The position numbers were made by a program, and so were the translations under genes. The notes under the pieces were generated by a model. The model did no database searches, was not told the origin of the DNA, and was given only the letters and a program-made list of their open reading frames with translations. Positions 24,420 through 63,579 of a stretch of DNA of 64,000 bases are shown here, one piece after another (the stretch's first letter is position 1; every line of letters begins with the position of its first letter). Source of the DNA: Lewinellaceae bacterium (GTDB lineage Bacteria > Bacteroidota > Bacteroidia > Chitinophagales > Saprospiraceae); NCBI GenBank assembly GCA_040382095.1, contig JBEIGB010000001.1, positions 2,269-66,268 of the forward strand. The letters run 5' to 3'.

Positions 24420-25556
24420 ATGAAAATTCGCGCCACTTTTATCATCGCTGCCCTGCTCGTCTTTTGTGTTTCCCATGCTCGCGCAGGTCAGGAATCCCAT
24501 GAAGAAAAACCATATTTCGAATACGTTATCGAACACATCTCGGACGCCAACGAGTTCCACGTCTTCGGCGATGTCCATATACCATTGCCCTGCATCCTCT
24601 ATGCCAAAGACCGCGGCCTCGATGTGTTTATGTCCAGTGCCTTCGAACATGGCCACAAAGTCGTCAATGGCTATGTACTCGACCACGGGGATGTAAAACG
24701 CATCAAAGGATGGTCAGAAAATATGGGGGTCCACCACATCGAACGTACAGGTGAAGAAGAAGGCAGTGAGGCCCGTTTCGCCTTCAGCGACGGAAAAGCC
24801 TATGAACTGGAAAGCCCAGGTCATTTCCTCCAACCCACTTCGTGGATCGATTTCTCCATTACCAAAAACGTCTTCACGATGTTACTGGCCTCGCTGATCC
24901 TCTTTGTCATTTTCTTCAGCGTGCGCAAATCTTATGAACAGCGGGACGGCCAGTCCCCGAAGGGACTCCAGTCTTTCATCGAGCCGATTTTCACTTTCAT
25001 CAGGGACGAAGTAGTGAAACCGAATATCGGCCATCACTACGAAAAATATATGCCGTTCGTAATGTCCCTGTTCTTCTTTGTGCTCATTTGCAACCTATTA
25101 GGCCTCATTCCCTTTTTCCCCGGTAGCGCCAATGTCACCGGCAACCTCGCAACAACTGCCGCGCTGGCTTTCTTTACCCTCATCATCGTAACGATCAGCG
25201 GCAACCGCCACTATTGGCAGCACATCTTCTGGATGCCCGGCGTGCCCGTACCAATCCGCTTTATGCTCGCCCCAATAGAATTCGCAGGGGTATTCATCAA
25301 GCCTTTCACTCTGCTTATCCGTCTTTTTGCCAATATCACAGCAGGTCACGTCATTATCCTTTGCCTCGTCGGTATGGTCTTTATCCTGGGCGATAATGGC
25401 AAAAACCTGGGCGGAGTCATTAGCGGAAGCTTCCTGACCGTCGCTTTCGTCTTCATTATGAATCTCCTGGAACTCTTTGTAGCCTTCCTCCAGGCTTTTA
25501 TCTTCGCGCTGCTGACTTCGCTCTACATCGGCGCAGCTATCGAAGAACACCACTAA
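24420..25556 (+). CDS. atpB: F0F1 ATP synthase subunit a
   Basis: The C-terminal half carries conserved LLIRLFANITAGH (essential Arg). It is multi-pass and first in the a-c-b-delta-alpha-gamma gene order. Confidence 0.93.
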   Translation: MKIRATFIIAALLVFCVSHARAGQESHEEKPYFEYVIEHISDANEFHVFGDVHIPLPCILYAKDRGLDVFMSSAFEHGHKVVNGYVLDHGDVKRIKGWSENMGVHHIERTGEEEGSEARFAFSDGKAYELESPGHFLQPTSWIDFSITKNVFTMLLASLILFVIFFSVRKSYEQRDGQSPKGLQSFIEPIFTFIRDEVVKPNIGHHYEKYMPFVMSLFFFVLICNLLGLIPFFPGSANVTGNLATTAALAFFTLIIVTISGNRHYWQHIFWMPGVPVPIRFMLAPIEFAGVFIKPFTLLIRLFANITAGHVIILCLVGMVFILGDNGKNLGGVISGSFLTVAFVFIMNLLELFVAFLQAFIFALLTSLYIGAAIEEHH

Positions 25557-25587
25557 ACCCGATATGCTCGAACATTTTTTAACTTAA

Positions 25588-25806
<219 letters not shown>

Positions 25807-25837
25807 AAGCCGCCCTCCGGGCAAAAAAAGTGAAGCC

Positions 25838-25860
25838 GCGGCCTGCGGTTGGCAGGCCGC
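25838..25860 (+). promoter_or_regulatory. GC-rich intra-operon hairpin between atpE and atpF
   Basis: GCGGCCTGC-GGTTG-GCAGGCCGC is a perfect 9-bp stem located 32 nt after the atpE stop. No U-tract follows. It sits in an unusually long 136-nt atpE-atpF spacer. Confidence 0.4.
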
Positions 25861-25942
25861 CCGCTCCTTGCACTAAAATACCCGGGCAGATATGCCCCCG
25901 CACCTATAATATTTTAATCATTTATATAAAGTCATCTGCATC

Positions 25943-26461
25943 ATGGCCTTCTTATTTGGTTCGACTTTCTCACCGATTCTCCCGGATTTTGGGATATTCT
26001 TCTGGACTACCCTCATCTTCTTTATCGTATGGAGTGTATTGGCCCGCTTCGCGTTTAAACCTATCCAAAAAATGCTCAAAAAACGGGAAGAAGATATCCA
26101 AAATTCCCTCGACGAAGCAAAACGCGCCCGCGATGAAATGGCCAAGCTGCAGGCGCATAACGAACAGCTTCTGAAAGAAGCACAGGAAGAGCGCTCAAGG
26201 ATACTGAAAGAAGCAAAAGAAGCAGGAGAAAATATTGTAAAAACCGCAAAGGAATCGGCCAAAGAAGAAGCCCGCAATATCGTCGTCGCAGCCAAAAAAG
26301 ATATTGAGCTCATGAAACTCGAAGTCATGACCAATATCAAAAACGAAGTGGGCGCCATGGCAATTTCTGTCGCCGAAAAAATACTGGCGCGTGAACTCCA
26401 GGATAAATCCTCGCAGGAAGCCCTGGTTCAGAAATTAGTAGATGATTTCAAGCTCAATTAA
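25943..26461 (+). CDS. atpF: F0F1 ATP synthase subunit b
   Basis: An N-terminal TM helix (FFWTTLIFFIVWSVLARFAFKPI) followed by a long charged helix. Position in the operon also fits. Confidence 0.9.
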   Translation: MAFLFGSTFSPILPDFGIFFWTTLIFFIVWSVLARFAFKPIQKMLKKREEDIQNSLDEAKRARDEMAKLQAHNEQLLKEAQEERSRILKEAKEAGENIVKTAKESAKEEARNIVVAAKKDIELMKLEVMTNIKNEVGAMAISVAEKILARELQDKSSQEALVQKLVDDFKLN

Positions 26462-26487
26462 TTTCCCTGAACCCAAAACTGTAACGT

Positions 26488-27060
26488 ATGTCCGTTAAAA
26501 AAGTCGCATCCAGATACGCGAAGTCCTTACTCGACCTCGCCGTGGAATCCAATAAACTGGAAAGTGTAAAAGGGGATATGGATGGCCTGCTCGCTCTGGT
26601 CCGCGAAAACAGGGAATTCAAAACTTTCCTCAAAAGCCCCGTAATTCAATTTACCAAAAAAAAGGCAATCCTGGAGCAGCTGTTCACCGGCAAACTGGAT
26701 GAGCTTACTCTAAAATTCATCCTGCTGCTTGCAGGTAAACAGCGCGAAGCAATCCTCATCGAGGTCATCGCCGCCTTTCTCGACCAATACAGACAACTCA
26801 AACATATCTCCATCGTAAAAATCATCTCCGCCACACCCCTGCCAAAAGAACAAATAGAACAACTCAGGCATAAACTCGAAGCCAGTGCAATCGGCTTCGA
26901 AAATGCGGAGGTAATCACCGTTGTAGATCCAAAGCTGATGGGAGGCTATATCCTCGAAGTCGAAGGAAATGTGTATGATGCCAGCGTCCGCCATAAACTG
27001 GACAATCTCAAAAAAGAATTCAAAATCAACTTGTACGAATCCAAAATCGAAGCCCGTTAA
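26488..27060 (+). CDS. atpH: F0F1 ATP synthase subunit delta
   Basis: Sequence VASRYAKSLLDLAVE...GGYILEVEGNVYDASVRHKL. 190 aa, between b and alpha. Confidence 0.9.
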   Translation: MSVKKVASRYAKSLLDLAVESNKLESVKGDMDGLLALVRENREFKTFLKSPVIQFTKKKAILEQLFTGKLDELTLKFILLLAGKQREAILIEVIAAFLDQYRQLKHISIVKIISATPLPKEQIEQLRHKLEASAIGFENAEVITVVDPKLMGGYILEVEGNVYDASVRHKLDNLKKEFKINLYESKIEAR

Positions 27061-27145
27061 CCCTGTGGTCTTCCAGCTGTACTAATTTATTCTGCCTCTA
27101 AAACTTGATTCATCCTGCTCCGCAAGGGCACAAAAATTATCGAAT

Positions 27146-28750
27146 ATGATTGATGTAAGACCTGAAGAAATATCTCAGATTCTCAAACAGCAAATTTCCG
27201 GCTTCAACAATACAGCCGAATTGGAAGAATACGGCACCGTCCTCCAGGTTGGCGACGGTATCGCCCGTGTGTATGGCCTCAATAATGCACAATCCGGCGA
27301 GCTCGTTGAATTTGAAACTGGTGTGCAGGCAATCGTACTCAACCTCGAGGAAGATAATGTCGGCGTCGTCTTAATGGGTGCCAGTGATAATATCCGCGAA
27401 GGCTCCCGCGTACACCGCACCGGACGTATCGCCTCTATCGAAGTTGGCGAAGGCTTCATCGGCCGTGTCGTCAATCCGCTCGGCCAACCTATTGATGGCC
27501 GCGGCCCTATCGCAGGGGAAAAATTCGAAATGCCCCTCGAACGCAAAGCACCTGGCGTTATCTTCCGCCAGCCGGTATCCGAGCCACTCCAAACCGGAAT
27601 CAAGGCAATTGATGCCATGATCCCTATTGGCCGTGGTCAACGCGAACTTATCATCGGTGACCGCCAAACCGGAAAAACCGCAATCGCCCTCGATACCATT
27701 ATCAATCAAAAAGAGTTTTTCGAGGCTGGTAAGCCTGTTTATTGTATCTATGTGGCTTGTGGCCAAAAGGCATCCACCGTGGCACAGGTTGCTAAAATCC
27801 TGCAGGACAACGGCGCAATGGATTATACAGTGATTGTCTCTGCATCTGCATCCGACCCTGCGCCCATACAATTCTTCGCACCCTTCGCCGGGGCTTGTAT
27901 CGGTGAATTCTTCCGCGATACTGGCCGCCCCGCGTTGATTATCTATGATGACCTCTCCAAACAGGCCGTCGCATACCGCGAAGTCTCCCTCCTGCTCCGC
28001 CGCCCTCCTGGCCGCGAAGCATACCCCGGCGACGTATTCTACCTGCACTCCCGACTACTGGAACGTGCAGCTAAAGTCATCGCCAATGACGAAATTGCAC
28101 GAAATATGAACGACCTCCCGGCTTCCCTGATCGCAGCCAAAGACAGCAATGGCAACCCACTGGTCAAAGGGGGAGGCTCGCTGACGGCGCTGCCTATCAT
28201 CGAAACCCAGGCAGGTGACGTGTCCGCTTATATCCCGACAAACGTGATCTCTATCACCGATGGGCAAATATTCCTCGAATCCAACCTTTTCAACGCAGGG
28301 ATCCGCCCAGCAATTAACGTCGGTATCTCCGTCTCCCGTGTCGGAGGCGCCGCTCAAATCAAATCTATGAAAAAAGTGGCCGGTACACTCAAACTCGACC
28401 AGGCCCAATACCGCGAACTGGAAGCTTTCTCTAAATTCGGCTCCGATCTCGATGCCGCTACTATGGCCGTTCTGGAAAAAGGAAAACGCAACGTGGAAAT
28501 CCTCAAACAGCCACAGTATGCCCCCGTTTCCGTCGAAAAACAAGTAGCCATCATCTTCCTCGGTACCAATGGCCTCCTTAGGGATGTCCCGGTCAACCAT
28601 ATCCACGATTTCGAAATGGTGTTCCTCACCACCCTGGAACAACGATACCCGGAAATCCTCGAAAACTTCAAGGCCGGCAAACTGGAAAAAGAGGATACCG
28701 ACCGCATGCGCGCACTCGCTTCCGAATTGGCAAAACAATACAAAAAGTAG
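27146..28750 (+). CDS. atpA: F0F1 ATP synthase subunit alpha
   Basis: Walker [20 protein letters not shown], and [21 protein letters not shown]. Confidence 0.97.
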
Positions 28751-45960: not shown

Positions 45961-47625
<1,665 letters not shown>

Positions 47626-57480: not shown

Positions 57481-58146
57481 TCATACATTCAGGTAGGCCA
57501 TAAGCGCATCGTACCGTTCCCGCAGGCCCTGCCCATAATCGCTTTCACCGAAATAAGCCTTCACTTCATAGTTAAAGCGCTGATAACAGGCGATCAAGCC
57601 CTGTATATTCTGTCGGTTTACTTTTAAAGTCACTTCCATACGCGCAGAATCCGGGAAATGATGTACAAACGCACTGAGGATTATCGCATTTTCAGACTCT
57701 GCAATCCGTGCAATCTCAGAAAGAAAGTAATCCCGCTTGTCCATTTCCAGCACAATGATACTCCCGGCATCAGAAATTGCCGCTATAGCGGAAAAATGGA
57801 AAAGTATAGTGTCCAGGGAAATACAACCAAGATATCCTTCTTCATCATCCAAAACAGGGACTGCTGTCAACGCTTGTTCCGCAAATATGCGCATGACCTC
57901 CAGGATATGATCGCCAGATCTCGTATATGGGCGCTGTAGCATTTGCTTTGACCCCGTTAATACAGGCTTTGTGAGGTCAGTATCCAGAAGTTCCGCTTCG
58001 CTGACGACGCCCAGCAGTGTTTTGCCATTGACGACAGGCAAATGGCGCACATGCATCTCCTCCATCATTTCGAGTGCGATGTCGCCAGTGTCTGATCCCT
58101 GCAATGGAACAATAGAACCTGAAATGAGCTGTTCGGCCGTCATCAT
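57481..58146 (-). CDS. CBS-domain pair protein with C-terminal ACT-like domain
   Basis: Two CBS-like repeats (...MHVRHLPVVNGKTLLGVVSEAELL; ...LTAVPVLDDEEGYLGCISLDTIL). Start trimmed to the ATGATG at 58146. Confidence 0.8.
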   Translation of the reverse strand: MMTAEQLISGSIVPLQGSDTGDIALEMMEEMHVRHLPVVNGKTLLGVVSEAELLDTDLTKPVLTGSKQMLQRPYTRSGDHILEVMRIFAEQALTAVPVLDDEEGYLGCISLDTILFHFSAIAAISDAGSIIVLEMDKRDYFLSEIARIAESENAIILSAFVHHFPDSARMEVTLKVNRQNIQGLIACYQRFNYEVKAYFGESDYGQGLRERYDALMAYLNV

Positions 58147-58204
58147 TTGGATATAAAAGTCTTTTGGCTGCTTAATTAACAAAAAAAAGGCGGATAAAAA
58201 AATT

Positions 58205-59011
58205 TTAACCGGTTATTTTTCGGCGCTGATAGGCATACTCTTCGTCTGTAAGTAAGCCTTTTCCCCGAAGTTCCTCGAGTTTTCTGAGTTGTAACAGTAA
58301 ATCTGGGTTCGTTATTTGCCCCAATAAATCATTTTCCGGATTTACAGGCCCGATCTGGGGTATAATCCGGTACCCCCTTTGCTCGAAAGCCAAAAACTCC
58401 GGCTGTATCCTCAAAAAAGCCAGGGCATCATGCGTTTTTATGCGGTCAAAGTCGTTGAAACCCAATCCAACTGCCTGGTCGAGGTGATGGAAAGCTTTTT
58501 CAGCTTGCTCAGTAAGTGAGAAAGCACAGGCCAGATTAAAATGAACGGCCACATCGTTGGGGGAAAGCTGCAGGGATTTCGTGAAATCCTCAATCGCTCC
58601 TTCAAAATCATAGTCTTTGTATTTTGCGATCCCCGCTTTCTTTAGTTCTGCCACTTTACCAGAGGTCATTGCCCCGTCCCTGCCCCGTTGAGGTACCCGA
58701 CGGGTGTCCGTTTGGCGGCTTTCAGGACGTTTAGGGGCAACAGGACGTTCTTCACTGTTGCGATTGCGCGCTGCCCCCTTTTTATTTACCCGCTCTGCAC
58801 GAAAATAGTCCCTGTTATACTTGATATCAAACCTATCCTCATCCATTGAAAAAAATAAATAGGCATCTATGAACCCAAGAATCGTGGAAATCCCGGTCAT
58901 AGCAAAGATAATATAAAGGAAACCCAGGCCTGGCTGGCCAAGATAAAAACGATGAATGCCCAAAGAACCTAAAAAGAGCGCAAGCAGCCCGGCAATATGC
59001 TTTTCCTTCAT
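58205..59011 (-). CDS. TM2 domain - TPR - SHOCT domain protein
   Basis: TM2 signature LALFLGSLGIHRFYLGQ. A basic linker, then TPR-like repeats (YDFEGAIEDFTKSLQLSPNDVAVHFNLACAF). A SHOCT-like tail follows (LRKLEELRGKGLLTDEEYAYQRRKI). Confidence 0.75.
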   Translation of the reverse strand: MKEKHIAGLLALFLGSLGIHRFYLGQPGLGFLYIIFAMTGISTILGFIDAYLFFSMDEDRFDIKYNRDYFRAERVNKKGAARNRNSEERPVAPKRPESRQTDTRRVPQRGRDGAMTSGKVAELKKAGIAKYKDYDFEGAIEDFTKSLQLSPNDVAVHFNLACAFSLTEQAEKAFHHLDQAVGLGFNDFDRIKTHDALAFLRIQPEFLAFEQRGYRIIPQIGPVNPENDLLGQITNPDLLLQLRKLEELRGKGLLTDEEYAYQRRKITG

Positions 59012-59091
59012 GAAGTGTGAAAATTATTTGGGGGTAGTGCGATGATCATACTTAAAAATGCGTTTTACCGCTGAAATTTATGAAAATCTGG

Positions 59092-60348
59092 TCAATGCCG
59101 ATATACTTTACAGGTGAGTACTGTAAAATCATCCGGTATATTTTCATTCCCGCGGAAACGATCAATGTATGCCATCAGTTTTTTATTGAACTCGCCTGTC
59201 GGATACTTGTAGTTGAGCGCCACAAAATCTACAAGCGCTTCTTCATTGAAATAACGCCCCTTTTCGTCCCGGATTTCTACCAGACCGTCCGTATAGGACA
59301 AAATCATGGCTTCTGACCCTTCGATATCGCAATATCCAATTTCAATTTCCGGGATTTCCGGGTATGAACCAAGCATAATACAACCTTTATTGAGCAATTG
59401 TTTCTGTTGTGTACCCATAAGGATTGGGGGGTTATGCCCGGCATTGACATACTTTAGCTGTCCGGTATTGAAATCGTATTCCGCAATAAAAAAAGTGATG
59501 AACTTGTCCCCGTCCGTTATCCGGTTGACGGATTTGTTCATTGCCCTGATGAAAACGTCCAGCCCCAGGCGTTGATTGATTAAAGTATGGAAATTCGCCT
59601 GAAAGTTTGCCATGAGCAGCGCTGCAGCTAACCCTTTCCCTGTAAAGTCCCCGATACAAAAAACAATCTTGCCATCCTCAAACTCGATGAAATCAAAGTA
59701 ATCCCCCCCGACGCTGAGCTGCGGCTTGTAGATACTCCCAAACTCATAACGGTCATTACCGGGCAGTCGTTTAGGGATAAGCATCTGCTGCACTTCTGCG
59801 GCAAGTTCCATCTCCTTGCGCAGTCTTTGCTGTTCCAATTGCTTTTTAAACAAACGCTTGTTCTCTATGGCGACTGCAATGATGTTCGTGATTGTAGTGA
59901 TGAATTGTATCTTGTTATAAACATCTTCATCCTCCCCAAAACCACCTATGAATACATACGCGATGGGTACTTCCTTGTGCTTCACCGGAATCACAATATC
60001 GAACTCCCTGATGAGCGGGTGGTCAAATCCGTCCAGGCTTTTCAATCGCTCGAAAGACGGAAGAAAATCCCCGAGATCCAGGTGGAGCAGCTCTGGCAGA
60101 ATATCTATGGATGCCGTACAGTCCCATCTGCCATCCTCCTCTTTTACATATAAGGCCATTTTATGCACCCCCAATTCCCAACCTAAAAAAGATCGGTACA
60201 TCTCATACAATCCATGCGCCGATACGTTATTATTGATGGCTTGCGTTATGCCCAGGAGCCGGTTGATCTGCAATTGTTTTAAGTGCAGGTCATTCTGGAG
60301 GTTTTCTACCAGTTTTGCATAATTATCAGATTCAAAGGTTTTGGCCAT
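59092..60348 (-). CDS. GAF-domain PP2C/SpoIIE-family serine/threonine phosphatase
   Basis: The C-terminal half carries SVGGDYFDF..., GDFTGKGLAAALLM and LSYTDGLVE, which are SpoIIE/PP2C motifs. The N-terminal half is GAF-like. Trimmed to the ATG at 60348. Confidence 0.8.
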   Translation of the reverse strand: MAKTFESDNYAKLVENLQNDLHLKQLQINRLLGITQAINNNVSAHGLYEMYRSFLGWELGVHKMALYVKEEDGRWDCTASIDILPELLHLDLGDFLPSFERLKSLDGFDHPLIREFDIVIPVKHKEVPIAYVFIGGFGEDEDVYNKIQFITTITNIIAVAIENKRLFKKQLEQQRLRKEMELAAEVQQMLIPKRLPGNDRYEFGSIYKPQLSVGGDYFDFIEFEDGKIVFCIGDFTGKGLAAALLMANFQANFHTLINQRLGLDVFIRAMNKSVNRITDGDKFITFFIAEYDFNTGQLKYVNAGHNPPILMGTQQKQLLNKGCIMLGSYPEIPEIEIGYCDIEGSEAMILSYTDGLVEIRDEKGRYFNEEALVDFVALNYKYPTGEFNKKLMAYIDRFRGNENIPDDFTVLTCKVYRH

Positions 60349-60416
60349 GTAAGCACATTTTAGGACCCGTAAATTCCCCTTTAGCGATCTTTTCAACACA
60401 AAATAAAATAATACCG

Positions 60417-61094
60417 ATGATCTTCCAATTGCTGCTGGCTGTTGTACCTGGGTTGGCCATTGCCTGGTTTATCTATCGGATAGATAAATACGAGCGGGAA
60501 AAATTTTTTCCACTGACCCTGGCTTTTTTACTGGGCATGTTGATTACTCTCCCTATCATGGAAGCCCAAAAATGGTTCTTCACAATGGGCTGGGAGCAGT
60601 CGGCGTCGCTCTTTCCCGCCCTGTTTGTTTCTTTTATCCTTGTTTCCCTTCCCGAAGAAACGGTAAAATTCCTTGCACTCCTGTTCTCCTCTGCCCATAA
60701 ACGGCATTTTAACGAGCCTTTAGACGGTATTGTGTATTCAGTAATGATCAGCATGGGGTTTGCCACACTCGAAAATATCTATTACGCCCTGGAATTTGGG
60801 ATGCCGACGACCGCCTTACGTGCCCTCACCGCCGTACCAGCACATGCCGTATTTGCCGCTATGATGGGCTATTATGTAGGCAAAGCAACATTCCAAACAC
60901 AAAAAAAGCGACCGCTGCTCTTGAAGGGTTGGGCTGTAGCCATCACCGTACATGGCATCTACGACTTCTTCATCATCCAGGAAATATACGATGCACTCGC
61001 CTTACTCGCTATTGTCACCCTGACCATCAGCCTGTTTTTTGCCTTTAGGCTGATCAGGGAAGGGCAGGAAGCTTCACCGTTTAAAAAAGAGTAA
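60417..61094 (+). CDS. PrsW-family intramembrane protease
   Basis: Sequence LLAVVPGLAIAWFIYRIDKYEREKF. ExxK-type motif PEETVKFLAL and HGIYDF (HxxxD). Multi-pass. Trimmed to the ATG at 60417. Confidence 0.8.
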   Translation: MIFQLLLAVVPGLAIAWFIYRIDKYEREKFFPLTLAFLLGMLITLPIMEAQKWFFTMGWEQSASLFPALFVSFILVSLPEETVKFLALLFSSAHKRHFNEPLDGIVYSVMISMGFATLENIYYALEFGMPTTALRALTAVPAHAVFAAMMGYYVGKATFQTQKKRPLLLKGWAVAITVHGIYDFFIIQEIYDALALLAIVTLTISLFFAFRLIREGQEASPFKKE

Positions 61095-61126
61095 GATCGC
61101 CGGTCGTTGTACCTCCGCTCCTGGTT

Positions 61127-61468
61127 TTATTTACTAAGCTTTTCATTCCCCGCATGACGCTCCGCGTCCCGCACCGTTTTCTTTTCCAGATTTTTTTTCA
61201 ATGCTTCACCAAGATCAACCCCAGTTTGGTTCGCGATACAAACCAGCACAAATAATACGTCCGCCAACTCATCGCTGAGATCCTCCCTGGCACTCAGCGC
61301 TTCCTCAGGTCGCTTAAAAGATTGTTCTCCATATATCCTCGCCATAAGACGGGCCACCTCGCCAACTTCCTCCATCAAAATCGCAGTATTCGTCAATTCG
61401 TTATAATATCGTACCCCGATAGTCCTGATCCAGGTATCTATTATTTGCTGCACTTCCCGGATTTCCAT
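61127..61468 (-). CDS. MazG-like nucleotide pyrophosphohydrolase
   Basis: LMEEVGEVARLM...ELADVLFVLVCIAN is the EExxE...ExxD MazG pattern. The ATG at 61468 overlaps the dtd stop by 1 nt (TGATG). Confidence 0.8.
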   Translation of the reverse strand: MEIREVQQIIDTWIRTIGVRYYNELTNTAILMEEVGEVARLMARIYGEQSFKRPEEALSAREDLSDELADVLFVLVCIANQTGVDLGEALKKNLEKKTVRDAERHAGNEKLSK

Positions 61469-61920
61469 CACTCTTTTGTTTTTGTGTCTATAATGATCGT
61501 GACCGGCCCGTCATTAATCAAAGCGACCTGCATATCCGCACCAAACTCCCCCGTCACCACAGGTACTTTTGCCCAAAAAGTCAGTTGTGCAATAAATTCC
61601 TCGTAAAGCGATATGGCCACCTCCGGACGGGCAGCCCGGATAAACGAAGGCCGGTTCCCTTTTTTTGTACCCGCAAATAAAGTGAACTGGCTGATGACCA
61701 GTATTTCTCCTCCGGCCTGCTGTATCGAAAGATTCATCAGCCCGGCTTCATCTGAAAAAATACGCAGGTTGGATATTTTCGCCGCTAACCATTCAACATC
61801 CTCCCTGCCGTCGGCATCCTCCACCCCTAAAAGGATTAAAAGACCCTTGCCAATGGAAGACTTTACCCTTCCTTCAATGGTCACAGAAGCTTTACTTACC
61901 CTTTGAATGACTGCACGCAT
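61468..61920 (-). CDS. dtd: D-aminoacyl-tRNA deacylase
   Basis: [17 protein letters not shown]...[10 protein letters not shown]...ISQFTLFA...GNRPSF. Trimmed to the ATG at 61920 (150 aa). Confidence 0.93.
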
Positions 61921-61953
61921 TCGCTTCCTAATTTTTTTATGGAAAAAAGCCAT

Positions 61954-62460
61954 TTTTGCCGCACGACGGAGCCTGGCGCAACGAGCCGATTTTTCAGAAC
62001 TTTGAGCAATATGTTTTCAACATCTTTCTTTGTGTATTGGTGTGGAATACACAGACTTTATCAACAATTGACCACTTTCCCTTTTTTTATGCACAATTGT
62101 CGTGTATTTTTCCCCGGTATTTAACGATTTATACCCGTAAAATTAAACGAAATCCACAGCATTATCACATTTTAAAACCCAACTGTGGAATTGTGGACTA
62201 AAAATACCAACATAACGGGGATAAAGTCTTTTAATCCCCTGAAATATGATTTTTAAATGTCAATATCCTGTGGATAACTCTACTTTTACAGGGAATCATT
62301 ATTTTTTTTGCATTGGCTGTGTACTCGCTTTCCACAAATCCACAGCACTAATGATGACTGGTAGTAATATTTTTTTTAAAAAGTTATTTTATTGTCATTA
62401 TTATAGGATTGTGGAAAACGCAGGGAACAATGTCTGCAAAATTTGTTTTGCATTGAAAAA
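61954..62460. other. DnaA-box cluster with AT-rich tract: candidate chromosomal replication origin (oriC) or DnaA-titration locus
   Basis: Eight or more TGTGGAWAA/TTWTCCACA-like 9-mers in both orientations. One is a perfect TGTGGATAA at 62269-62277. A 44-nt, 89% A+T tract at 62365-62408 abuts the box at 62410. The 507 bp show no convincing ORF. Flanking genes are divergent. Confidence 0.55.
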
Positions 62461-63552
62461 ATGGATACGATGGTTCATGAAAAACATGCTTTGCAAGTCC
62501 CCCGTACCTATCCACGGGCGGTTACGATTTGGTTGATGACGGGTATATTACTTGTTTTTTTTCAGGTGGTGATTGGAGGGGTCACCCGGCTTACAGGCTC
62601 TGGGCTGTCTATTACCAAGTGGGAAATTATTACCGGTACGTTTCCACCAATGAGCACTGAAGCCTGGCAAGAGGCTTTTGATCTGTATAAAGCAACGCCT
62701 CAATATCAGAAAATCAACCAGGGGATGACGATGGGGGAGTTCCGCTTCATTTATTTCTGGGAATATTTCCATCGTCTTTGGGCGAGGATGATGGGGATGG
62801 TGTTTGTGATTCCTTTCTTTATTTTCTGGCGAAAGGGATGGATTGACAAGATGCTTATGCGCCGCCTGCTGGTGGTTATCGCACTTGCAGCGCTTGTCGC
62901 TTCTTTTGGCTGGATAATGGTCGCGAGCGGGTTGACAGACCGCCCCTGGGTAAATGCTTACAAGTTGTCCATACATCTTTCCCTCGCACTGATCCTTTAT
63001 AGTTATTTGTTTTGGACGATGTTGAAAACTTATGGGTTTTTTCCACAGGTTATTAACAATTTTGCCCTGAAAAGATGGGGGCTGGCTGTTGGGGTACTGC
63101 TCGCGGTCCAGATTGTCATCGGTGGGGTAATGTCGGGGATGAAAGCGGGAATATATTACCCAACCTGGCCCGACTACAACGGGGCGTATATCCCCGGGGT
63201 ATTAATGGACCCGGAGGCATGGGATACGGGTAATCTTTCCGGCTACGATAGTAGTCCTTTTGCTCCGTCATTGATCCATTTTTTGCATAGAAATATCGCT
63301 TATGTATTGATTGTCATTGGATTAATTTTCAGTGTATATGTATTGCGGGCGACAAGCTCACCCATATTGCGCCGCGGTGTCTGGGCGATGGCAGGCCTGT
63401 TTTTAGTGCAGATAATGTTAGGGATCATAACGGTCATTAACAGCCTTGGGATTATCCCGGTAGGCTGGGGCGTATTGCATCAGGCAGGCGCGATGTTACT
63501 GCTCTCGGCAGTATTATATGTGAATTTTCATCTATATATAAAAAGCAAATAA
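62461..63552 (+). CDS. ctaA: Heme A synthase (COX15/CtaA family)
   Basis: FQVVIGGVTRLTGSGLSITKWEIITG, about 8 TM helices, with conserved His in FHRLWA and LHRNIAY. Trimmed to the ATG at 62461. Confidence 0.85.
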   Translation: MDTMVHEKHALQVPRTYPRAVTIWLMTGILLVFFQVVIGGVTRLTGSGLSITKWEIITGTFPPMSTEAWQEAFDLYKATPQYQKINQGMTMGEFRFIYFWEYFHRLWARMMGMVFVIPFFIFWRKGWIDKMLMRRLLVVIALAALVASFGWIMVASGLTDRPWVNAYKLSIHLSLALILYSYLFWTMLKTYGFFPQVINNFALKRWGLAVGVLLAVQIVIGGVMSGMKAGIYYPTWPDYNGAYIPGVLMDPEAWDTGNLSGYDSSPFAPSLIHFLHRNIAYVLIVIGLIFSVYVLRATSSPILRRGVWAMAGLFLVQIMLGIITVINSLGIIPVGWGVLHQAGAMLLLSAVLYVNFHLYIKSK

Positions 63553-63558
63553 ATTAAA

Positions 63559-63579
63559 TGTGGAAAAATATGTGGATAA
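63559..63579 (+). promoter_or_regulatory. Two direct DnaA boxes in the 33-bp ctaA-aat spacer
   Basis: TGTGGAAAA (63559-63567) and a perfect TGTGGATAA (63571-63579), 3 nt apart. They lie 7 nt upstream of the aat ATG. Confidence 0.45.

Follow-up and report, generated by a model that had tools for sequence, protein, structure and literature searches.

A probable chromosomal replication origin beside the heme A synthase gene ctaA in an uncultured Saprospiraceae bacterium

The genes dtd (D-aminoacyl-tRNA deacylase) and ctaA (heme A synthase) are separated by a gap of 507 bp in a 64,000-nucleotide stretch, here called the window, from an uncultured bacterium of the family Saprospiraceae (phylum Bacteroidota; GenBank assembly GCA_040382095.1, contig JBEIGB010000001.1, positions 2,269 to 66,268). 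Both genes are transcribed away from the gap, which holds a cluster of DnaA boxes followed by a short trinucleotide repeat and an AT-rich tract, and a further pair of boxes lies in the spacer between ctaA and the next gene, aat (Table 1). An earlier reading of the window, referred to below as the original prediction, had proposed the gap as a candidate chromosomal replication origin (oriC). The anatomy of this candidate, its enrichment in boxes, its GC-skew switch and its conservation were computed directly. The window was assigned to the Saprospiraceae from its CtaA homologues, among which the named matches come from Haliscomenobacter, Lewinella, Phaeodactylibacter, and Flavilitoribacter. The exact CtaA protein was found on three Joint Genome Institute (JGI) metagenome contigs of the same species, in which the spacer differs from that of the window at two positions; one of these same-species contigs, L001, reaches 6.5 kb past ctaA. 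The species is present in the JGI metagenomes 3300042691, 3300035663, and 3300049595.

All eight boxes with a TGTGGA core listed in the original prediction were recovered at their positions, as was its degenerate box TTATCACA at 62162, and three degenerate boxes (62014, 62058, and 62087) and the two boxes past ctaA were identified in addition. Eight of the 41 TGTGGA/TCCACA hexamers in the window sit within 375 bp (62041-62415), compared with a density of approximately 0.5 per kb elsewhere. When the gap was simulated 20,000 times using a first-order Markov model of its own sequence, a mean of 0.30 and a maximum of 4 hexamers were obtained, against the 8 observed (empirical P below 5e-5). Similarly, seven 9-mers with at most one mismatch to TTWTCCACA are present in the gap, compared with 0.79 per kb elsewhere and a maximum of three in any other 507-bp window. 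AT-richness was rejected as the source of this density, as the 20 other windows matched for AT content (GC of 0.40 or less) each held zero or one such 9-mer. A box density no higher than in other AT-rich stretches had been named as grounds for giving up the original prediction; with the density higher in the gap, that reading stands.

The best-conserved block of the gap is a core in which the tandem pair CTTTCCACAAATCCACA is followed by GCA, CTA ATG ATG, the AT tract, and then TGTGGAAAA. Of all 40-bp duplexes in the window, the one starting at 62365 is the least stable (nearest-neighbor dG of -38.2 kcal/mol), and of all 44-mers the one starting at 62362 has the lowest GC content; the 44-nt tract at 62365-62408 contains 5 G/C, as previously counted. 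This arrangement was compared with the basal unwinding system (BUS) of Bacillus subtilis, using published descriptions (Richardson 2016 and 2019; Pelliciari 2021 and 2023) and the oligonucleotides of the strand-separation assays (Pelliciari 2021 supplement). The BUS rules allow a box with at most two mismatches and an optional second box with at most four; CTTTCCACA has one mismatch to TTTTCCACA and two to TTATCCACA, and is followed by AATCCACA, which is identical to B. subtilis box #7. A spacer of no more than 16 bp, ending in a short GC-rich cluster, is to separate the first box from the trios, and here 8 nt plus GCA give 11 nt. The published search rule asks that three or more triplets, each with adenine at its center, lie no more than 16 bp from the first box (Pelliciari 2021), and at least three such consecutive trinucleotides occur here on the strand running 3'->5' from the boxes. 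In recognition of a trio the central adenine is the key contact and 3'-GA-5' is preferred (PMC10721633). A "mirror-image" trio, with 5'-GAT-3' on the wrong strand, was considered and dropped in favor of a one-base register shift giving 3'-GAT TAC TAC-5' with central adenines. The shift takes in the last C of the GC cluster, and the canonical-strand reading was adopted as the more economical, the strand that DnaA would bind being inferred. The wrong-strand arrangement corresponds to the DnaA-triosMUT control scaffold used for B. subtilis (Pelliciari 2021 supplement).

Table 1. Features of the dtd-ctaA-aat region, in window coordinates (three species: those of the alignment described in the text, which includes loci L004 and L005)
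Feature	Coordinates	Strand	Remarks
dtd (D-aminoacyl-tRNA deacylase), left neighbor, transcribed away from the candidate origin	61468..61953	-	Open reading frame (ORF); PF02580 Tyr_Deacylase on JGI contigs
Degenerate DnaA box TTTTCAACA	62014..62022	+	One mismatch to family consensus TTTTCCACA; aligns with perfect TTTTCCACA in L005
DnaA box TGTGGAATA (TATTCCACA on - strand)	62041..62049	-	Invariant in three species
Degenerate DnaA box TTATCAACA	62058..62066	+	Aligns with perfect TTATCCACA in L004 and L005
DnaA box TTATGCACA	62087..62095	+	Regular-expression match TTWTNCACA; unchanged in three species, in conserved island ATGCACAATT
DnaA box AAATCCACA	62150..62158	+	AA[A/T]TCCACA kept in three species
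Degenerate box ATTATCACA	62161..62169	+	Kept in window and L004
Overlapping box pair TGTGGAATT (62184) / TGTGGACTA (62192)	62184..62200	-	8-bp offset
Perfect E. coli-type box TGTGGATAA	62269..62277	-	TGTGGATAA in L004, TGTGGAAAA in L005
Tandem pair proximal to the DNA-unwinding element (DUE), CTTTCCACAAATCCACA = CTTTCCACA (62328) + AAATCCACA (62336)	62328..62344	+	Invariant in three species
3-nt spacer GCA and trinucleotides CTA ATG ATG, candidate DnaA-trio element	62345..62356	+	Lower strand 3'-GAT TAC TAC-5' (62348-62356)
AT-rich DUE	62362..62408		Least stable 40-bp duplex and lowest-GC 44-mer
Perfect family-type box TGTGGAAAA, right edge of DUE	62410..62418	-	Invariant in three species
ctaA leader/promoter region, including AAAATTTG at 62438-62445	62419..62460	+	Conserved block, three-species alignment
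ctaA (heme A synthase, COX15/CtaA), conserved right neighbor between two box clusters	62461..63552	+	PF02628
Tandem pair TGTGGAAAA-ata-TGTGGATAA (63559, 63571), both perfect boxes	63559..63579	-	34-bp ctaA-aat spacer
Core as scaffold sequence			CTTTCCACAAATCCACAGCA + CTAATGATG...

Binned at 2 kb, the plus strand has a negative GC skew throughout positions 1 to 62,000 (-0.07 to -0.29 per bin), and only the final bin is positive. A resolution of 500 bp places the change of sign between 62,000 and 62,250, with positive values from 62,250 on, and across the window joined with L001 (70 kb) the cumulative G-C minimum falls at 62,348, 4 nt past the tandem pair. In L001 the skew stays positive for 7.5 kb, even through four minus-strand genes. 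Left of the gap, each of the 26 long ORFs is negatively skewed whichever strand it occupies; the value for ctaA is +0.157. A switch from negative to positive GC skew marks an origin, not a terminus, the leading strand being G-rich. The skew across 1-62000 is unusually strong, at about -0.17 on average and down to -0.30 per gene. The gene orientation described earlier was reproduced: the ORFs between 49.5 and 62.0 kb lie on the minus strand except 60315-61094, and ctaA and the next three genes lie on the plus strand. The original prediction had also cautioned that the groESL and atp operons would be head-on to forks leaving this site. That caveat does not count against an origin, because coding in long ORFs left of the site amounts to 20.5 kb per strand, with no gene-strand bias in the region, and the skew is negative on both strands.

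Relatives were collected by a profile scan retaining one genome per species, which yielded 80 loci, nearly all from the Saprospiraceae or its genera, with CtaA proteins 54 to 90% identical. Conservation of the box pattern in relatives had been suggested as a check on the original prediction, and the entire layout, together with the skew switch, recurs upstream of ctaA in approximately 60 to 80 other Saprospiraceae species. Across the 80 loci, TGTGGA/TCCACA hexamers occur at approximately 0.5 per kb in the flanks and at 2 to 8 per kb in the 800 bp upstream of ctaA. The box logo reads T69 T76 T54/A29 TCCACA upstream of ctaA and T96 T96 T82 TCCACA downstream, and because of these two logos the family box was taken to be TTTTCCACA. 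Of 81 loci, 68 carry the core motif, at a distance of 50 to 370 nt upstream of ctaA. In these 68 loci the module opens with a TTxTCCACA box. A further 8-mer follows, either AATCCACA or one of the degenerate forms TATTAACA and AACTAACA, and then come a GC spacer of 3 nt, a run of three or four triplets of the form [C/A]T[G/A]-ATG-AT[G/A], a G-rich block, and an AT-rich sequence of approximately 35 to 40 nt. The distance from the proximal box to the searched motif is 3 or 6 nt family-wide, and a run of at least three central-adenine triplets is present in all 68 motif loci, three being guaranteed by the search pattern itself. Mean GC skew in 500-bp bins is about -0.04 to the left and +0.05 to +0.10 to the right, flipping exactly at the core, and the right-hand skew exceeds the left-hand skew in 58 of 60 loci. 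A hairpin or cruciform formed by the GC clusters on either side of the trinucleotide repeat (which read cccc...gggg in several relatives) was rejected, as the mean best stem was 2.93 nt versus 2.91 +/- 0.08 nt when flanks were permuted between loci.

An alignment of three species, with CtaA identities of 100, 90, and 77%, shows a diverged, indel-bearing spacer in which the core, the right-hand box, and the majority of the boxes are conserved islands. Within the overlapping pair, the box TGTGGAATT (62184) is retained in L005 and differs by one mismatch in L004, and the box TGTGGACTA (62192) is not conserved. Islands at 62106-62122 (ATTTTTCCCCGGTATTT), 62203-62213 (AATACCAACAT), and 62216-62226 (CGGGGATAAAG) are likewise conserved in the three species and match the DnaA box poorly; highly degenerate boxes or binding sites of a different origin-binding protein could account for them. 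The ORFs at 61956-62201 and 62246-62536 were rejected as genes, as the alignment shows islands at the boxes, indels, and diverged spacers, and no structured RNA or tRNA was found in the whole window (Rfam gathering thresholds; ARAGORN). The box at 62410 faces the tandem pair to its left, and the ctaA promoter region overlaps with it in its upstream part; a box at the equivalent place was counted by eye in roughly 12 of the 68 listed loci and is present in the close relatives of the window. The left neighbor varies, being dtd in the window, L004, L012, and L016 and, in most other loci examined, a gene starting MCGRYS, whose product may, to judge by its N terminus, be SRAP/YedK-like. This left gene (MCGRYS or MCGRFS start) diverges from the element in L005, L007, L009, L028, L043, and L044. 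The sole constant neighbor of the element is ctaA.

Taken together, the dtd-ctaA gap is very probably the chromosomal replication origin of this bacterium, because the skew switch, the box enrichment, the DUE, the core layout, and the conservation upstream of ctaA all agree with that assignment, and the original proposal of a candidate oriC is supported. At least three DnaA boxes at a mean distance below 100 bp are expected of an oriC (Mackiewicz 2004, as quoted in PMC7561715), and eight core and four degenerate boxes lie at 62014-62418, adjoined by the AT-rich DUE at 62362-62408 and accompanied by the skew switch and cumulative minimum over the 70 kb available. The element appears to be an ordinary DnaA-dependent oriC with a BUS-like core, whose neighbor is the heme A synthase gene rather than dnaA and whose place is kept family-wide.

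A number of observations weigh against this assignment. The classic indicator genes, such as dnaA, dnaN, and gidA, do not adjoin the gap, although such a neighbor is typical rather than obligatory. The absence of dnaA from the window noted in the original prediction was confirmed, as neither a GKTHL nor an RDHTTV signature occurs in its six frames, and dnaA was not found by Pfam among ten candidate ORFs of 378 to 535 amino acids; six-frame regular expressions likewise found no dnaA signature within 6 kb of ctaA in the 80 relatives, and dnaA was absent from all 83 loci. The skew minimum is a local one, drawn from 70 kb with 7.6 kb to the right of the site. AT skew flips sign approximately 3 kb to the left of the GC-skew switch (58000-62000), probably a coding-strand effect of the minus-strand genes in that interval. 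Beyond the first trio, the repeat departs from the BUS trio sequence 3'-[G/A]A[T/A]-5' (consensus GAT), trios 2 to 4 being TAC or TAT family-wide, and the trios of most relatives are set apart from the AT tract by a G-rich block. Because trios 2 and 3 read 3'-TAC-5' and this block intervenes in most relatives, the assignment to an unwinding system rests on layout; use of TAC trios by DnaA is plausible.

Three other explanations of the gap were weighed, which jointly retain only a slight chance of being correct. It is highly unlikely that the gap is a DnaA-regulated divergent promoter of dtd and ctaA, with boxes that act only as transcription factor sites. DnaA acts as a transcription factor in other bacteria, the box at 62410 lies just upstream of the conserved promoter-like block of ctaA, and the pair at 63559-63579 lies immediately upstream of aat; however, a promoter would need far less than an extreme AT tract, a repeat resembling trios, and approximately 12 boxes, the strand-independent skew switch would go unexplained, and the element is constant where the left neighbor (dtd or the MCGRYS gene) differs by lineage. 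Regulation may well be a secondary role of some of the boxes beside origin function.

More improbable still is the alternative raised in the original prediction, a datA- or DARS-like titration or reactivation locus that binds DnaA without firing, the true origin lying elsewhere. A dense box cluster with no dnaA nearby would suit such a locus, which would be expected away from the skew minimum; here, the switch and the cumulative minimum fall inside the element (with the switch recurring in 58 of 60 related species), the cluster holds the DUE and borders the window's least stable duplex, and pair, spacer, and trios follow the layout of an unwinding module, none of which a titration site has reason to possess. 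This alternative was therefore not supported. The least probable of the three is that the skew switch marks the breakpoint of a rearrangement (inversion) or the border of an acquired island and coincides with the box cluster by chance. Although the left neighbor is not conserved across the family and the right side is known for 7.6 kb only, the recurrence of the switch, its sign unchanged, at this element in 58 of 60 species, a box enrichment with an empirical P below 5e-5, and housekeeping genes on both flanks (atp genes, dtd, ctaA, and rsmG) all speak against a chance coincidence.

For the origin assignment, comparison with known systems places the core closest in layout to tested unwinding modules. 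On the upper strand these read TTATCCACAAATCCACA-GGCC-CTACTATTACTTCTACTA in B. subtilis; TTATCCACCAATCCACA-GCAC-CTACTACTATTACTA in Staphylococcus aureus, with a box end of ...AATCCACA and trios CTACTA...; and TTTTCCACATTTTCCACA-GCCC-CTACTACTACTG... in Synechococcus elongatus, with trios CTACTA.... The B. subtilis incC/BUS region shares with the gap a tandem pair at an identical 8-bp offset (TTATCCACAAATCCACA, boxes #6/#7, versus CTTTCCACAAATCCACA), a short GC spacer, at least three central-adenine trinucleotides, and then an AT-rich region. It differs in that here only the first trio is 3'-GAT-5' and those after it are 3'-TAC-5' (in some relatives TAT), the spacer has 3 nt rather than 4, most relatives carry the G-rich block between trios and AT tract, and the candidate origin lies next to ctaA rather than between dnaA and dnaN. 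Cyanobacterial origins (S. elongatus and Anabaena PCC 7120) also prefer the box TTTTCCACA over TTATCCACA (DoriC 5.0, PMC3531139; PMC4009838), S. elongatus has a tandem pair, GC spacer, and trios as well, and linkage to dnaA or dnaN is lacking at some cyanobacterial origins (PMC4009838). However, they belong to another phylum, are typically next to dnaN, and carry canonical upper-strand CTA repeats.

Origin predictions for cultured Saprospiraceae were already available in DoriC/Ori-Finder, namely those of Haliscomenobacter hydrossis (NC_015510, ORI94030375) and Saprospira grandis (NC_016940, ORI95030458), whose listed BUS strings are unlike the conserved Saprospiraceae core. One Bacteroidota origin, that of Cytophaga hutchinsonii, is reported as experimentally confirmed: a DoriC prediction was followed by a demonstration of its function on plasmids (Xu et al. 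2012, as cited in PMC3531139). It is from the same phylum and is likewise based on DnaA boxes, but belongs to another class, and its BUS prediction (Pelliciari 2021 supplement) is weak and unlike the Saprospiraceae core. Against this background, the linkage to ctaA with no dnaA found nearby, the preference for TTTTCCACA boxes, the TAC trios, and the boxes within and after ctaA appear to be specific to the origin described here.

The second box cluster directly past the ctaA stop codon is kept family-wide as the pair TGTGGAAAAnnnTGTGGAAAA, with 120 core matches in the first 50 bp across the 80 loci; in some loci, TGTTGAAAA or TGTTGGTAA variants replace it. Within ctaA itself, approximately 750 bp from its start, a box TGTGGA[A/T]AA encoding W-x-V-E/D-N was found in 50 of 58 loci (for example, L007:6758 and L011:6770; loci L006-L083). 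The in-gene box was not found in ctaA of the window (62461-63552), a lineage that has WDTGN. At this motif, the Val codon is GTG in 51 of 58 cases (30% overall in ctaA), the third base of the preceding codon is T in 57 of 58 (33%), Glu is encoded by GAA in 40 of 40 (61%), and Asp by GAT in 18 of 18 (65%). This codon choice indicates selection on the DNA sequence itself, and ctaA therefore sits inside a putative DnaA-binding region. The main cluster and the conserved two-box cluster flank ctaA on either side, with the DUE in the main one, an arrangement that may correspond to a bipartite oriC. In the bipartite origins of B. subtilis, Helicobacter pylori, and Clostridioides difficile, the clusters interact by DnaA-mediated looping (PMC8235120, PMC7561715); these too have DnaA-box clusters on either side of a gene and a DUE in only one of them, but there the intervening gene is dnaA, whereas here it is ctaA and the second cluster has just two boxes. 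That ctaA is embedded in a split origin, complete with the conserved tandem pair, the in-frame ctaA box of most species, and a lineage-specific 3'-TAC-5' trio run after a single GAT, is a tentative suggestion and, as a whole, rather unlikely.

If the gap functions as an origin, DnaA would occupy approximately 12 boxes (family consensus TT[T>A]TCCACA) over 62014-62344, with the tandem pair CTTTCCACAAATCCACA (62328-62344) serving as the double-strand anchor in the manner of B. subtilis boxes #6/#7. From this anchor, a DnaA-ATP oligomer would cross the 3-nt GC spacer onto the lower-strand trios 3'-GAT TAC TAC-5' (62348-62356) and melt the AT tract at 62362-62408, where the replicative helicases would load, and bidirectional forks would produce the GC-skew switch at 62,348. 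The box at 62410 and the pair at 63559-63579 may act as auxiliary DnaA sites, stabilizing the complex by looping as in split origins and/or coupling transcription of ctaA and aat to DnaA; the former could also be the starting point of a further filament, formed on the opposite strand, or have its effect on the ctaA promoter. These steps are inferred, and binding and firing are predictions.

For the flanking genes, the gene calls on the JGI contigs start dtd at the ATG at 61953; the true start is probably MRAVIQRV at 61920, which would lengthen the spacer to approximately 540 bp. At the place equivalent to AAAATTTG in the ctaA leader, relatives carry TAGTTTTG or TAATTTTG. The motif AAAATTTG resembles the Bacteroidota -7 element TAnnTTTG and, judged by the published Bacteroides promoter consensus, may mark the ctaA promoter. 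A sigma-70 promoter and terminator scan was uninformative, as matches are expected in an AT tract and Bacteroidota promoters differ from that consensus. Further to the right, at L001:7601-8227, approximately 4.6 kb from the candidate origin, lies rsmG/gidB (PF02527), the only classically origin-linked gene seen. In other bacteria, rsmG/gidB is classically linked to origins. On the left, an ORF of the ATP synthase alpha/beta family (45961-47568, minus strand) lies approximately 17 kb from the atp operon ORFs on the opposite strand (24420-28750, plus strand), which include ATP-synt_A at 24420-25556.

The assignment fixes a replication origin, and hence the replichore layout, for an uncultured Saprospiraceae lineage. 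For a family in which no dnaA was found close to the origin, it also offers a family-wide anchor with which assemblies of metagenome-assembled genomes can be oriented, namely the core TTxTCCACA-(8-mer)-GC-[C/A]TR-ATG-ATR-GGG-AT tract upstream of ctaA. The gap is a defined fragment for the construction of oriC plasmids, a tool that has served well in Bacteroidota such as Cytophaga hutchinsonii. Natural variants are provided by the conserved non-GAT trios and by the boxes inside and after ctaA, and with them the strictness of DnaA-trio recognition and the roles of auxiliary clusters could be probed. Should all the sites of the tentative split origin function, they would form a distinct variant of the bipartite and BUS design; if true, initiation would be physically coupled to a gene for assembly of the respiratory chain, and the family would provide a natural test of DnaA-trio strictness.

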